Below the pieces are notes generated by a model, which did no database searches, was not told the DNA's origin, and saw only the letters and a list, made by a program, of their open reading frames with translations. 64,000 bases of DNA. Source: a virus. Taxonomy: Duplodnaviria > Heunggongvirae > Uroviricota > Caudoviricetes. Where the stretch lies: IMG/VR virus record IMGVR_UViG_3300013126_000009. The stretch is one strand, 5' to 3'. Position numbers and translations under genes: made by a program. Of this stretch, positions 54,073 through 63,656 are shown one piece after another; position 1 is the stretch's first letter; each line of letters starts with the position of its first letter.

Positions 54073-54441
54073 GGGTGTGACTGGATTTGATTGCATGATG
54101 TTCTTTGATATAAGGAAGCACTGCGACTCAGGTTATAGCAGTACAAAATTTACTTGAGAATTATAAAAGGCGAAGATTTCGTTAATTATGAAAGATTCTT
54201 TGCTACTGAAGCAGAAGCTTTAGTGTAAGGGATGTTTGCACCAACAGCATAATAGGTGCCGAGTTAAGACAGCTTAACAAAACCTTTTTAGTTTATTGAG
54301 TTTTAAGGTCAATAAAATTTAATAACGGGTTTTCAAATTCCTGTAAAGATTTGATATTTCGTCAGATTAGAAAATGTGACTAAGCTTGTAGAAAGTATTA
54401 TTGATGCGTGTAAGACGAGAGTTCGAATCTCTCCACATCCA
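54073..54441 (+). ncRNA. ssrA: tmRNA
   Basis: Acceptor GGGTGTG/CACATCC+A with G3:U70; GACTGGATTTGA 5' motif; T-arm GAGA-GTTCGAAT-CTCTC; tag frame 54169-54228 (A)GEDFVNYERFFATEAEALV*. Confidence 0.9.
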
Positions 54442-54460
54442 CACTGAACTTTTGTTCTTA

Positions 54461-54978: not shown

Positions 54979-55066
54979 CGCGGGAATGAAGGCTGGTAGT
55001 GATGCCTCGGTAGTCTCATAAGCTACCAACCGTAAAGGTGTGAAAGTGCGATTCTTTCTCCCGCAA
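54979..55066 (+). tRNA. atypical tRNA-Met(CAT), initiator-like acceptor, long variable arm
   Basis: CGCGGGA/TCCCGCA (C1:A72); GTAGT-CTCATAA-GCTAC; 14-15-nt variable region; T-loop TGCGATT. Confidence 0.75.
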
Positions 55067-58131: not shown

Positions 58132-59310
58132 ATGTTTAAAAAATTAATAAAAGAACAATTACTATTGGAAGCGGAAGAAGTCCGTATACCCTTTAAAATG
58201 GACATACCTGAAGATATTAGGAAGATACAGAAAGTATTCAAAGCTAATGGTAAAGAATTATATTTGGTCGGTGGTTCTGTTAGGGATGCTTTATTGGGTA
58301 AACCTATAAAGGATTATGATTTAGCAACTGAAGCCAAACCTGATGAGGTTATTAAAATGCTTAAAGGAAAACCATTTATAACAAATATAATAGAAACTGG
58401 TAAATCTTTTGGTGTTATAAACGCATTAACTGACAATGATGAGTATGAGATTGCCACTTTTAGGTCTGAATCGGGATACGAAGATTCTAGAAGACCTTCA
58501 AGTGTTGAATTCACTGATATAGCAACAGATGTTGCCCGAAGAGATTTAACCGTTAACGCATTATTCTATGATTTGGATACCAATGAGGTTGTTGACCTTG
58601 TTGGTGGAATTGAAGACCTTAAAAAAGGTATTATTCGAACGGTTGGTGACCCATCTGAACGATTTGAAGAGGACAAGCTAAGAGTGTTAAGAGCTATTAG
58701 ATTTGCCGCAAGATTCGGTAGTGAGGTTGATGAGAAGATAGACCAATTACTAAGTAAAGGTATTGATTTATCAGCAATTTCTGGTGAGCGCATTAGAGAT
58801 GAATTCATCAAAGGAATCAAGACATCCAAATCAACTGTTAATTTCTTATCGATGTTGGATAAATATGATTTGTTCAATGCTATATTTCCTAACGTTAAAA
58901 TCAATAAGAATTTCATAGAGAGTAATGACTCAGAGTTGGTAATTGCCAGCTTATTGTTACCACTTATAACTATAAGTGACATATCTCAAATCGAAAAGAA
59001 ATTAAATGCGTTGAAATACTCAACACAAGAAATACGTGATATAACAGCTTTAATGTTATTGACTCAATTTGAACCAGATGAAATTGTACCAATGAAAAAG
59101 AAACTACAACTAAGTAGTTTATCTGATGAACAGATTAAAACTTTTGCTTCACTAATGAACTTGGATGCTAATCTAATTGACAAATTATTGCAATTCAAGT
59201 TATCGGTAAGTGGGCAAGATGTTATGAAACAATTCAATATCAAAGGACCAGAGGTCGGTAAAGTAATCAATCAAATTGAGGTCGAAAAATTCAAAAAAAC
59301 ACTCAATTAA
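58132..59310 (+). CDS. cca: class II tRNA nucleotidyltransferase (CCA-adding enzyme/poly(A) polymerase family)
   Basis: VGGSVRD...DYDL, RRDLTVNAL, EDKLRVLRAIRF and ERIRDEF. Confidence 0.88.
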   Translation: MFKKLIKEQLLLEAEEVRIPFKMDIPEDIRKIQKVFKANGKELYLVGGSVRDALLGKPIKDYDLATEAKPDEVIKMLKGKPFITNIIETGKSFGVINALTDNDEYEIATFRSESGYEDSRRPSSVEFTDIATDVARRDLTVNALFYDLDTNEVVDLVGGIEDLKKGIIRTVGDPSERFEEDKLRVLRAIRFAARFGSEVDEKIDQLLSKGIDLSAISGERIRDEFIKGIKTSKSTVNFLSMLDKYDLFNAIFPNVKINKNFIESNDSELVIASLLLPLITISDISQIEKKLNALKYSTQEIRDITALMLLTQFEPDEIVPMKKKLQLSSLSDEQIKTFASLMNLDANLIDKLLQFKLSVSGQDVMKQFNIKGPEVGKVINQIEVEKFKKTLN

Positions 59311-60913: not shown

Positions 60914-60945
60914 TTTGCATTACATCTAAAACTTTTATATATTTG
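60914..60945 (+). promoter_or_regulatory. Bacteroidota sigma-A type promoter of the leader/tRNA operon
   Basis: TTTG (60914-17), 20 nt, TATATTTG (60938-45). Confidence 0.8.
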
Positions 60946-60966: not shown

Positions 60967-61053
60967 ATGAAAACTATGAGCATACATATGAATTCGATTA
61001 ATTGGAGACGCAGTAGCGCCACCATGGTCGGTTATGCTCATAACTTTAGTTGA
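60967..61053 (+). CDS. putative attenuator leader peptide (28 aa)
   Basis: MKTMSIHMNSINWRRSSATMVGYAHNFS*; codons 4-17 match the anticodons of the downstream tRNA array. Confidence 0.75.
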   Translation: MKTMSIHMNSINWRRSSATMVGYAHNFS

Positions 61054-61114
61054 TTTAAATTATAAAACTAAGAAATGAAGAACCCGACCTTAAACAGTCG
61101 GGTTTTTTGTTTTT
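60975..61114 (+). promoter_or_regulatory. putative ribosome-dependent transcription attenuator
   Basis: 60975-84 pairs with 61033-42 (10 bp); antiterminator 61026-33 can pair with 61081-89; terminator at 61081-61114. Confidence 0.7.
61081..61114 (+). terminator. rho-independent terminator ending 4 nt before tRNA-His
   Basis: AACCCGAC-CTTAAACA-GTCGGGTT-TTTTGTTTTT. Confidence 0.85.
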
Positions 61115-61118
61115 ATAT

Positions 61119-61206
61119 GGTCTGGTTAGCCCGTAACAGGTTAGCGGAACGGGTTGTGACCCCGTGGTAGAAATACCCCAATCGGTTCGAGTCCGATACC
61201 AGACCC
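61119..61206 (+). tRNA. tRNA-His(GTG), long variable arm
   Basis: GGTCTGGT/ACCAGACC (consistent with G-1:C73); ACGGG-TTGTGAC-CCCGT; GGTA-GAAA-TACC arm; ATCGG-TTCGAGT-CCGAT. Confidence 0.8.
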
Positions 61207-61256
61207 AGAATATTATCTTCGGATAATATGTTCTTTGACATATTAATATTAAACAC

Positions 61257-61328
61257 ACAGACATGGTGTAATTGGAAGCATAATTGACTCCAAATCAATT
61301 GGTTAGGGTTCGAGGCCTTATGTCTGTG
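61257..61328 (+). tRNA. tRNA-Trp(CCA)
   Basis: ACAGACA/TGTCTGT; ATTGA-CTCCAAA-TCAAT. Confidence 0.9.
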
Positions 61329-61340
61329 CAAATAATTTAT

Positions 61341-61428
61341 GGTGAGGCAAGCCAATTGGTGGTGGCCGCTATTTGCTAGGTAGTTAGGAGTAACCAGTCT
61401 CGTAAGGGTTCAACTCCCTTCCTCACCG
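61341..61428 (+). tRNA. tRNA-Ser(GCT)
   Basis: GGTGAGG/CCTCACC+G; loop TTGCTAG; long variable arm. Confidence 0.88.
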
Positions 61429-61445
61429 CGATAAAATTATATAAT

Positions 61446-61537
61446 GGAGGCGCCCAGTTGACAGAGGTACACCGTCTTGAAAACGGCTAGGTCAGTGATG
61501 AGCTGATGTAAGAGTTGGACTCTCTTCGTCTCCGCCA
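61446..61537 (+). tRNA. tRNA-Ser(TGA), CCA encoded
   Basis: GGAGGCG/CGTCTCC+GCCA; loop CTTGAAA; T-loop TTGGACT. Confidence 0.88.
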
Positions 61538-61543
61538 TAAATT

Positions 61544-61634
61544 CGACCTGTAGCAGCCAAACCTGATAAGTTTGAGAACTGTAGCTGGTATCTTGAGATA
61601 ACATCAAACATTGGTTCGAATCCAATCAGGTCGA
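61544..61634 (+). tRNA. non-canonical tRNA-Ile(GAT)-like RNA
   Basis: CGACCTG/CAGGTCG+A; CAAAC-CTGATAA-GTTTG only 7 nt after the acceptor; canonical T-arm. Confidence 0.6.
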
Positions 61635-61739
61635 CATCAACCATCAATGCCTCTCTTTGAAGCACACTTTTGATATCTGATGAAAACTAGTTAGTAGTCA
61701 GACAGAGTTACAAGATTCTCTAGGGTAAAAATCTTTCTT

Positions 61740-61829
61740 GGTGCGGTACCGATGGAAGCTTATATCTTCTATACTCGTAATGGCATGTTGAGATAACATC
61801 AAATATTGGTTCGAATCCAATCCGCACTA
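61740..61829 (+). tRNA. non-canonical tRNA-Ile(TAT)-like RNA
   Basis: GGTGCGG/CCGCACT+A; ATGGAAG-CTTATAT-CTTCTAT 5 nt after the acceptor; shares 34 of 35 nt of the 3' module with 61544-61634. Confidence 0.6.
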
Positions 61830-61843
61830 CATTAAATTAAAAT

Positions 61844-61915
61844 TCTGGTGTAGCTCAGAGGCAGAGCACTTGTCTGTTAAACAAGTGGTCGTGATATCGT
61901 AATTCACCACCAGAG
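61844..61915 (+). tRNA. tRNA-Asn(GTT)
   Basis: TCTGGTG/CACCAGA+G; CTTGT-CTGTTAA-ACAAG; atypical T-loop ATCGTAA. Confidence 0.88.
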
Positions 61916-61922
61916 CAATCAT

Positions 61923-61992
61923 TGCGAGTCTTAATGGTAAAGAGCCTCCTCTCATAAGGGAAGCCAAATCGGTTCAATTCCGATACTCGCAA
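61923..61992 (+). tRNA. tRNA-Met/Ile2(CAT), compact D-arm junction
   Basis: TGCGAGT/ACTCGCA; loop CTCATAA; ATCGG-TTCAATT-CCGAT; D-stem CTT/AAG directly abuts the acceptor. Confidence 0.7.
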
Positions 61993-62007
61993 CGTTAAAA
62001 TTAAAAT

Positions 62008-62087
62008 GGCGACATAGCCGAGCGTAGCTACGAACTACGTAATCGTAATCGGAGCGGAGGATGTGGGTTCGAATCCCTCTGTCGTCA
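62008..62087 (+). tRNA. atypical tRNA-Arg(ACG), long variable region
   Basis: GGCGACA/TGTCGTC+A; ACGAA-CTACGTA-ATCGT (A31:A39, U37); 16-nt variable region. Confidence 0.6.
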
Positions 62088-62094
62088 CATTTCT

Positions 62095-62166
62095 GGCACT
62101 ATGATGTAAATGGAAGCATCTCAATCTTCTAAATTGAGTGTAAAAGTTCGAATCTTTTTAGTGTCA
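62095..62166 (+). tRNA. tRNA-Arg(TCT)
   Basis: GGCACTA/TAGTGTC+A; TCAAT-CTTCTAA-ATTGA. Confidence 0.9.
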
Positions 62167-62215
62167 CTTTTTTTTTTGATTATTTTTTTGTATATTTATT
62201 TGTATATTTATTATT

Positions 62216-62753: not shown

Positions 62754-63656
62754 ATGGAAAAAAATCGTCTAGGATATATGGTAACAAGACCAGACCAAAA
62801 ACTCACCATAATGAGAGGAATTTCAGGGTCAGGTAAAAGCACTAGGGCAAAAGAATTGGTCGGGAGCGGTGTAATTCACTCAACTGATGATGTAATATCT
62901 TCTATGGGTAATTATAATGATATTTTTGCTGATATGATAACCCGTAAAGATTTTTCAAACTTACAAAAGGCGCACCAAACAAATTTAAGAAATGCCATTA
63001 ACTCAATGAAGAATGGTATAACACCAGTCATTATAGATAACACTAATTTAGCGCCATGGGAATCTAAAGCTTATGTCAAAGCCGCATTGGAAATGGGTTT
63101 TGATGATAAGAATATAGAGATAGTGAATGTTGGTACTGGTGGTGCTTCAGCTGAAGAATTAGCGAAAAGGAATACTCATGGTGTCCCATTGGATAAAATC
63201 AAAGCGATGATTGATAAGTATAACGCTAATAAAGACATTACGATTGATGATATTCTTAAAGAAACCAAAAAAGATAAATCCGATAAGGTTTTGTATTCAG
63301 CTGTTGTTTTAGATGAAAAATCCAAAAACGAGCTGTTAGCTAAGTTTGACATACCTGAAGGTTGGAAAACCTTTGCGCATCATATGACGATAGTTTTCGG
63401 TAAAGGTTTACCAGAAGACATGAAATCTGATTTAGGTAAAACCGTTACATTGACAGTTAAAGAGTTGGGAATTTCTGATATGGCAATAGCCGTTAAGGTT
63501 GATGGATACCCATCAACCAATAACATACCACATATAACAATGGCTGTTAATGTTAACGAGGGTGGAAAACCTGTAATGTCAAATCAAATTACAAATTGGA
63601 AACCAGTTAAAAATTTCAATATTACTGGTACCGTAACAGAAGTTAAAGCAAATTAA
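62754..63656 (+). CDS. P-loop polynucleotide-kinase-like (AAA_33) domain fused to a 2H phosphoesterase
   Basis: MRGISGSGKST and IIDNTNL; C-terminal HHMTI and PHIT 2H motifs; promoter TTTG (62718), 20 nt, TATATTTG (62742). Confidence 0.8.
   Translation: MEKNRLGYMVTRPDQKLTIMRGISGSGKSTRAKELVGSGVIHSTDDVISSMGNYNDIFADMITRKDFSNLQKAHQTNLRNAINSMKNGITPVIIDNTNLAPWESKAYVKAALEMGFDDKNIEIVNVGTGGASAEELAKRNTHGVPLDKIKAMIDKYNANKDITIDDILKETKKDKSDKVLYSAVVLDEKSKNELLAKFDIPEGWKTFAHHMTIVFGKGLPEDMKSDLGKTVTLTVKELGISDMAIAVKVDGYPSTNNIPHITMAVNVNEGGKPVMSNQITNWKPVKNFNITGTVTEVKAN

Follow-up and report, generated by a model that had tools for sequence, protein, structure and literature searches.

Phage isoleucine tRNA genes with a re-threaded D-domain, and their relatives in phages and bacteria

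Results

Two tRNA-Ile genes whose D-stem encloses the anticodon arm

Within a 64,000-nt window of the virus record IMGVR_UViG_3300013126_000009 (162.5 kb, 32% G+C, estimated to be 46% complete), two neighbouring genes, here RNA1 and RNA2, belong to what is almost certainly a real, conserved and structurally new class of tRNA fold, and it is likely that they are working isoleucine tRNAs of this re-threaded class. To our knowledge, the arm order of tRNA is treated as universal outside mitochondria. Here, the chain runs from the acceptor through one D-stem strand, the anticodon arm, the second D-stem strand, the D-loop and a linker to the T-arm. In canonical numbering, this order is 1-9, 22-44, a short bulge, 10-21, a linker ending at 48, and 49-73. 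A third member, for arginine, lies in the same array. The parts of the three genes are listed below.

61544..61634, + strand: RNA1, rewired tRNA-Ile(GAU), long form, no encoded CCA
61544-50/61627-33: RNA1 acceptor, 7 bp
61551-52: RNA1 U8 A9
61554-56 with 61579-81: RNA1 D-stem, 3 bp
61558-62/61570-74: RNA1 anticodon stem; loop 61563-69, anticodon GAU 61565-67
61575-78: RNA1 4-nt bulge; U13 at 61582
61583-90: RNA1 D-loop; G15 61584, G18 G19 61587-88, U20 61589
61597..61605, + strand: optional 9-nt linker insertion in RNA1, the loop of a supposed extra hairpin
61610-26: RNA1 T-arm, T-loop 61615-21; C48 at 61609, A73 at 61634
61740..61829, + strand: RNA2, rewired tRNA-Ile(UAU), long form, no encoded CCA
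61740-46/61822-28: RNA2 acceptor
61750-52 with 61775-77: RNA2 D-stem
61754-58/61766-70: RNA2 anticodon stem; loop 61759-65, anticodon UAU 61761-63
61779-85: RNA2 D-loop; U13 61778, A15 61780, C20 61784
61792..61800, + strand: the same optional 9-nt linker insertion in RNA2
61805-21: RNA2 T-arm; U48 at 61804, A73 at 61829
62008..62087, + strand: rewired tRNA-Arg(ACG), short form; D-stem 62019-21 with 62043-45, A15-U48 pair, A20 and A73 present

The first-pass annotation had described a 7-bp acceptor, an A discriminator, a T-arm, the anticodon loops and D-loop-like segments in both Ile genes, and all of these were found where it had placed them. It had also recognised the permuted arm order, with the D-loop 3' of the anticodon arm, which is supported by covariation, but had missed the 3-bp D-stem that encloses the anticodon arm. 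The strands of this stem are the three bases after U8 A9 N and the three after the anticodon arm; in both genes the second strand is followed by U, A, a purine and then GG. The 34/35 identity reported for the 3' ends holds for 61593-61627 versus 61788-61822, a stretch that is internal and reaches from the linker through the T-arm. The 5' parts, said to differ completely, are identical at 20 of 42 positions and share the same structure. The lone mismatch in the common 35 bases is nucleotide 48 (C versus U), and it is explained by the 15-48 core pair, since nucleotide 15 matches it (G versus A), giving G-C in RNA1 and A-U in RNA2. The near-identical linker and T-arm suggest that a recent duplication or gene conversion may lie behind them.

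The 104-nt spacer between the Ile genes (61636-61739) is 95% conserved in close relatives and 79% conserved over 52 nt in locus L026, where it lies upstream of the UAU gene; no Rfam match and no folding signal were found in it.

Neither Ile gene was called by ARAGORN, also at a lowered threshold, and neither had an Rfam match at E<=1. On a model of the rewired layout, RNA1 scored 79.3 bits and RNA2 81.9 bits, both being in its training set. The Arg(ACG) gene, outside that set, scored 42.5 bits versus 32 bits on RF00005; ARAGORN and Rfam read it as a forced cloverleaf, with the D-arm broken and the variable region long.

Covariation supports the rewired fold

We collected relatives from viral, metagenomic and genomic loci with search patterns made up of the anticodon loop, then the D-loop motif, then the T-loop. 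Parsing gave 204 distinct relatives, 104 of them below 85% identity; the loci are related, so counts overstate independence. U13, A14, GG and the T-loop belonged to the search patterns and most acceptor, anticodon and T pairs were required by the parser, so these are not independent evidence, while the D-stem, the 15-48 pair and nucleotides 20 and 73 were essentially free of search constraints.

In an alignment of 40 sequences, 98.7% of the 840 cells were paired (slid controls: 33-44%), and 19 of the 21 pairs showed two-sided changes, among them two of the three D pairs and the 15-48 pair. Pairing per helix was 97-100% for the acceptor, T-stem and anticodon stem, as partly demanded by the parser. 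RNAalifold, unaided, recovered the same 20 pairs. Another 24 Arg genes, neither targeted by the patterns nor used in the model, were 95% paired.

Nucleotides 15 and 48 pair in 40/40 sequences of the first alignment and 24/24 of the Arg alignment, and form G-C or A-U in 199 of the 204 relatives, a pair that no search pattern demanded. To limit the effect of relatedness, we counted disjoint pairs of close relatives: nucleotide 48 followed nucleotide 15 in 24 of 28 (control positions: 7-11 of 28), the middle D pair held in 36/36 and the third in 30/39. Neither 22-13 nor 26-44 behaves as a Watson-Crick pair (20% and 33% paired). The bases for U8-A14, G18-U55 and G19-C56 are present; here A14, GG and the T-loop were pattern-given.

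These data bear on the reading of RNA1 and RNA2 as decayed pseudogenes or chance look-alikes. Folding of the single sequences is unremarkable (z of -1.5 for RNA1 and -1.0 for RNA2) and the failure of ARAGORN and Rfam to find them would fit such a reading. Against it stand the 204 distinct, intact relatives with compensatory changes, and the layout parser, which found three genes in the 162.5-kb genome versus one match in total in 40 dinucleotide shuffles. Moreover, a related locus (L001) holds an identical copy of RNA2, and the acceptor substitutions between this phage and L001 preserve pairing. We regard this explanation as scarcely credible.

The linker insertion is optional

The conserved extra hairpin of the first-pass annotation turned out to be an optional 9-nt insertion at the tip of the linker turn, present in 68 genes (a number enriched by targeted searches), Ile and Arg alike, and absent in 136 of the 204 relatives. 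Among 65 long members, the four base pairs of the hairpin were 95, 100, 100 and 80% paired, and an alternative 3-bp hairpin inside the insertion 100, 100 and 57%; neither showed a compensatory change. Two positions of the linker that precedes nucleotide 48 carry U and A in 164 genes and G twice in 13, with 2 genes departing from this among four anticodons; the pattern suggests a non-Watson-Crick pair that may close a small turn.

If the hairpin at 61593-61607 were the true anticodon arm, RNA1 would be a cloverleaf with an oversized D-arm. That hairpin does have a 7-nt loop just before the T-arm; its loop, however, is without U33, short members are without such a hairpin altogether, and the insertion comes and goes in Ile and Arg genes without compensation. 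In the first hairpin, by contrast, Y32-U33 and A37 are retained and all five pairs covary. We regard the oversized D-arm as highly improbable.

We also considered a decoy Ile anticodon in the loop of the insertion, and rejected it: Arg genes have the insertion as well, and the GAU is off-centre.

Three loci (L152:4952-5028, L262:7388-7464 and L286:1495-1571) hold a 77-nt subtype, a second arrangement within the class, with an A-rich turn in the bulge before the D strand and a linker of only 4-5 nt.

The L-shape is probably retained

In cloverleaf tRNA, the D and anticodon stems stack on each other; in the rewired chain, the D-stem would run on into the anticodon arm without a break. Counted from U13 to the anticodon loop, the rewired chain would provide 1 + 3 + 1 + 5 = 10 layers, as in cloverleaf tRNA. 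The rewiring may thus be pictured as a re-joining of nearby strands: 9 to 22, 44 to 10, and 21 to the variable region. Since the displaced D-loop still follows U13 and nucleotide 15 still pairs with 48, the elbow (G18 G19 with the T-loop) and the L-shape are probably kept.

A chain out of order could also be a precursor with scrambled parts, from which cutting and re-ligation would make a normal cloverleaf, comparable to circularly permuted or intron-split genes. Red algae do have permuted and split tRNA genes (PMC3728597), and the phage encodes a candidate end-healing enzyme. However, the ends of the rewired genes are in normal order, so that an internal swap would require the chain to be cut in three places and joined in three; every core pair and the right helix length are available in the chain as it stands; and the class occurs in unrelated phages and bacteria. 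We therefore think such processing very unlikely. The circularly permuted genes of Cyanidioschyzon merolae (PMC3728597) and the YrlA Y RNAs (RF02553) resemble the rewired genes in their non-standard order of tRNA parts, but there the 5' and 3' ends are moved, whereas the rewired genes have normal ends and an open acceptor with a re-threaded interior. The Rfam search of RNA1 and RNA2 gave no YrlA or Y RNA match.

Identity elements follow the anticodon

The anticodons of the 204 relatives are confined to GAU and UAU (Ile), CAU, and UCU, UCG, ACG and CCU (Arg). Nucleotide 20, the base after GG, is A in 39/39 Arg genes versus 3/165 others; among Ile genes, 151/152 have A73 and 137/152 have U20. 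In bacteria, ArgRS relies mainly on A20, and the Ile elements include A73 and U20 (PMC9976931, Table 1). A relocated loop with the signal proper to each amino acid would be hard to account for if synthetases did not read it.

The anticodon loops of RNA1 and RNA2 are fully canonical. From the Ile identity set A73, A35, U36, A37 and U20, RNA1 has all and RNA2 all but U20 (it has C20). Out of C4-G69, U12-A23, C29-G41, A38 and G34 or modified C34, only C4-G69, G34 and A38 are present in RNA1 and none in RNA2.

The array and its leader

The two Ile genes lie in a tRNA array between genes for a CCA-family nucleotidyltransferase and a kinase.

58132..59310, + strand: nucleotidyltransferase of the CCA-adding/poly(A) polymerase family (PF01743, E 4e-39; PF12627)
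60914..60945, + strand: promoter-like sequence, TTTG, 20 nt, TAnnTTTG
60967..61053, + strand: leader ORF, 28 codons, with one AUA (60982-84) and one AUU (60997-99)
61070..61113, + strand: intrinsic-terminator-like hairpin in the gap between leader and array (z = -4.6)
61119..62167, + strand: tRNA array, His, Trp, Ser(GCU), Ser(UGA), Ile(GAU), Ile(UAU), Asn, CAU, Arg(ACG), Arg(UCU), with Ser(UGA) and CAU assigned by eye
62754..63656, + strand: P-loop kinase (PF13671, E 2e-12); its cyclic phosphodiesterase match (PF08302, E 3e-4) is below that family's cut-off

The nucleotidyltransferase is a candidate maturase for the CCA-less genes and the kinase a candidate RNA end-healing enzyme. The promoter-like sequence, which also precedes tRNA cluster 3, has what we take to be the Bacteroidota-type promoter consensus, so the host is probably a member of the Bacteroidota.

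The leader ORF contains exactly one AUU and one AUA codon, as had been noticed before. Within codons 4-19, 14 encode His, Trp, Ser, Ile, Asn, Met or Arg (binomial P=3e-6, window chosen by eye), and every anticodon of the array has a matching leader codon, AUU and AUA included. Leader positions 61026-33 are complementary to the 5' arm of the terminator hairpin. All four tRNA clusters of the genome begin with a short leader ORF followed by a terminator-like hairpin (the other leaders are at 108490, 112031 and 120699 of genome C1), and 14, 11, 13 and 15 of 16 codons in the four leaders stand for the cluster's own amino acids (P of about 1e-6 each, window by eye). Leader and hairpin are thus likely to form an attenuator that senses a shortage of the cluster's tRNAs.

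No canonical Ile gene was found in the 162.5-kb record, in which the other 19 amino acids all have genes (the CAU gene assigned by eye); this proves little because the record is 46% complete. The same 46% complete record gave no TilS or IleRS-type gene. AUA makes up 3.0% and AUU 3.6% of the phage's codon usage. Three marine metatranscriptome runs contained 4-12% of words, as short contigs of a relative that cover the leader, His-Ser and the CAU-Arg(ACG) stretch and leave the Ile genes uncovered.

Several other tRNA genes of the phage are unusual. Within the array, the tRNA-His (61119-61206) has a long variable arm; the tRNA-Ser(UGA) (61446-61537) has an odd T-loop, is missed by ARAGORN and is represented in L001 by an ordinary-looking Ser gene; and the CAU tRNA (61923-61995; Met or Ile2), missed by ARAGORN and Rfam, has a lengthened anticodon stem and, immediately 3' of the acceptor, a D hairpin of 3 bp. 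Upstream lie a tmRNA gene (54073-54444; RF00023, 58.6 bits), also missed by ARAGORN, and an ARAGORN-uncalled CAU tRNA-like gene (54979-55066), whose variable region is long and T-loop unusual and which is not of the rewired type. In genome C1, the genes for Leu(UAA) and Leu(CAA) (109161-109238 and 109249-109326) show no long variable arm, carry a D-loop that lacks a normal stem, and have their anticodon stem extended to about 7 bp, possibly a halfway layout. Several T-arm-bearing tRNA-like elements at 117400-118200 have no clear anticodon arm.

Decoders or decoys

The first-pass annotation had assigned both genes to isoleucine and had left open whether they are decoders with a new fold or tRNA mimics. 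Covariation, identity elements and leader codons uphold the assignment and favour decoding. The array would be transcribed when ribosomes slow on the leader codons, and RNase P-type trimming together with the phage CCA-family enzyme would mature the ends. Host IleRS would then charge both RNAs via the anticodon, A37 and A73; GAU would read AUU and AUC, and UAU would read AUA without TilS. This reading is weakened by the missing E. coli Ile determinants and by the need of UAU for a tolerant IleRS and ribosome: one study (PMC3575796) reports that E. coli IleRS charges UAU poorly and that the E. coli ribosome lets UAU misread AUG.

Alternatively, the RNAs could fold as described and act as decoys or regulators that sequester anticodon nucleases or tRNA-modifying toxins, or that bind to synthetases, with no use on the ribosome. 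The odd wiring and the likely RNA repair genes nearby would suit such a role, phage tRNAs can counter tRNA-cutting defences (PMC11555353), and many phages also keep canonical Ile genes, which accompany the rewired ones in 27 of 49 tRNA-rich loci. Yet in these 49 loci, a canonical GAU gene stands beside a rewired GAU gene in 5/18 versus 21/31 otherwise (P=0.009), so the rewired gene tends to replace the canonical one. Furthermore, the identity elements track the anticodon, the acceptor, anticodon and T stems have ribosome-compatible lengths, and in the leader AUU and AUA are handled in the same way as the codons for the ordinary tRNAs of the array. Decoys are therefore an unlikely reading, and translation of isoleucine codons is the one we prefer.

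Comparison with known tRNAs

Like canonical bacterial and phage tRNA-Ile and tRNA-Arg (RF00005), the rewired genes have a 7-bp acceptor, U8 A9, a 5-bp anticodon stem with a 7-nt loop, a 5-bp T-arm, G18 G19, the 15-48 pair, the discriminator and nucleotide-20 pattern, and a position in tRNA arrays. Where those have a D hairpin, the rewired genes have a D-stem around the anticodon arm and, 3' of this arm, a D-loop that forms a single-stranded junction. Because the arms do not follow the cloverleaf order, we did not file the genes under RF00005.

A UAU anticodon was described in the first-pass annotation as rare in bacteria. This agrees with the view that tRNA-Ile(UAU) was lost from prokaryotes and their phages (PMC8007984) and with work on Mycoplasma mobile (PMC3575796). 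There, too, UAU offers TilS-independent reading of AUA; the M. mobile tRNA has been isolated and tested and depends on an adapted IleRS (Arg865) and an adapted ribosome, and the abstract of that work does not suggest a changed arm order. Allo-tRNAs, that is 8/4 or 9/3 tRNAs (Mukai et al., PMC5389517; reviewed in PMC7609411), are likewise metagenome- or phage-borne and missed by standard finders, and UAU and Arg anticodons are common among them. They stay cloverleaves with an altered acceptor/T-stem split, whereas the rewired genes are 7/5 throughout and differ in arm order. The terms 'phage', 'permut' and 'rearrang' are absent from that review of non-canonical tRNAs (PMC7609411), and our literature search, with subscription journals largely outside its scope, found no description of the rewired layout.

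A natural class with a re-threaded D-domain that retains the core pair and synthetase signals would reveal the contacts that the ribosome, EF-Tu and synthetases need; a second wiring may be able to give the shape of a tRNA. Such a scaffold could serve the design of orthogonal or nuclease-resistant tRNAs.

Rewired genes in cultured phages and bacterial chromosomes

The class is widespread and mostly missed by gene finders. ARAGORN missed 172 of the 204 relatives and gave 16 a wrong anticodon; phage and bacterial tRNA sets would be under-annotated to that extent, and tRNA-Ile(UAU) would be common but hidden. BLAST of RNA1 against cultured phages returned T-arm matches only. Unannotated members are present in such phages: Arg(ACG) in Caulobacter Ccr10 (KY555142.1, 51785-51864), Brevundimonas Kabachok and Vibrio D260, Arg(UCU) in Pseudomonas ventosus, and Ile(GAU) in Streptomyces phage Mildred21 (MF155946.1, 73703-73779), just after the tRNA nucleotidyltransferase gene. 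These copies, in phages that grow on laboratory hosts, would make the class directly testable.

A genome scan returned 13 loci, 11 of them with true members; L264 and L267 look like phage contigs. Matches occurred in 5 of 151 Saprospiraceae genomes. In three Saprospiraceae assemblies, Ile(GAU) and Ile(UAU) lie in an array of up to about 22 tRNA genes beside mfd, with porQ on the other side of the array in two of them, and the rewired genes occupy the Ile places. Although the genomes are metagenome-assembled, the housekeeping neighbours that they share speak for a chromosomal location, and the class is thus not phage-only. TilS is present in four of the five bacterial genomes tested; the Saprospiraceae hosts keep it, and the rewired UAU gene is therefore spare there. 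A canonical-Ile pattern, run with no positive control on assemblies of a kind often without rRNA operons, had no match in five bacterial genomes.

In the sections available to us, work on supernumerary tRNA arrays of phages and bacteria directed against tRNA-cutting defences (PMC11555353; PMC12803027) describes a similar setting, with a spare tRNA set, a CCA-family enzyme and repair-type genes, and no re-threaded tRNA; the Saprospiraceae and Bacteroidetes chromosomal arrays that carry the rewired class resemble these arrays as well. Escape from nucleases is a possible, still tentative, reason for the rewiring. More speculative is the full scenario, in which bacterial translation can use a second, non-cloverleaf wiring; this would have arisen in phages, for Ile, Met/Ile2 and Arg, as an escape from host enzymes that read the D-arm or chain path and cut or modify tRNA, and some bacteria would have adopted it in spare arrays.

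One more array with rewired genes lies amid trp and tRNA-synthetase-like genes (by eye), and another, in a Bacteroidetes assembly, beside a WYL-domain gene. At L270:4718-6454, a WYL/WCX-domain regulator is divergent from a chromosomal tRNA array with a rewired Ile gene, which hints at induction by stress.
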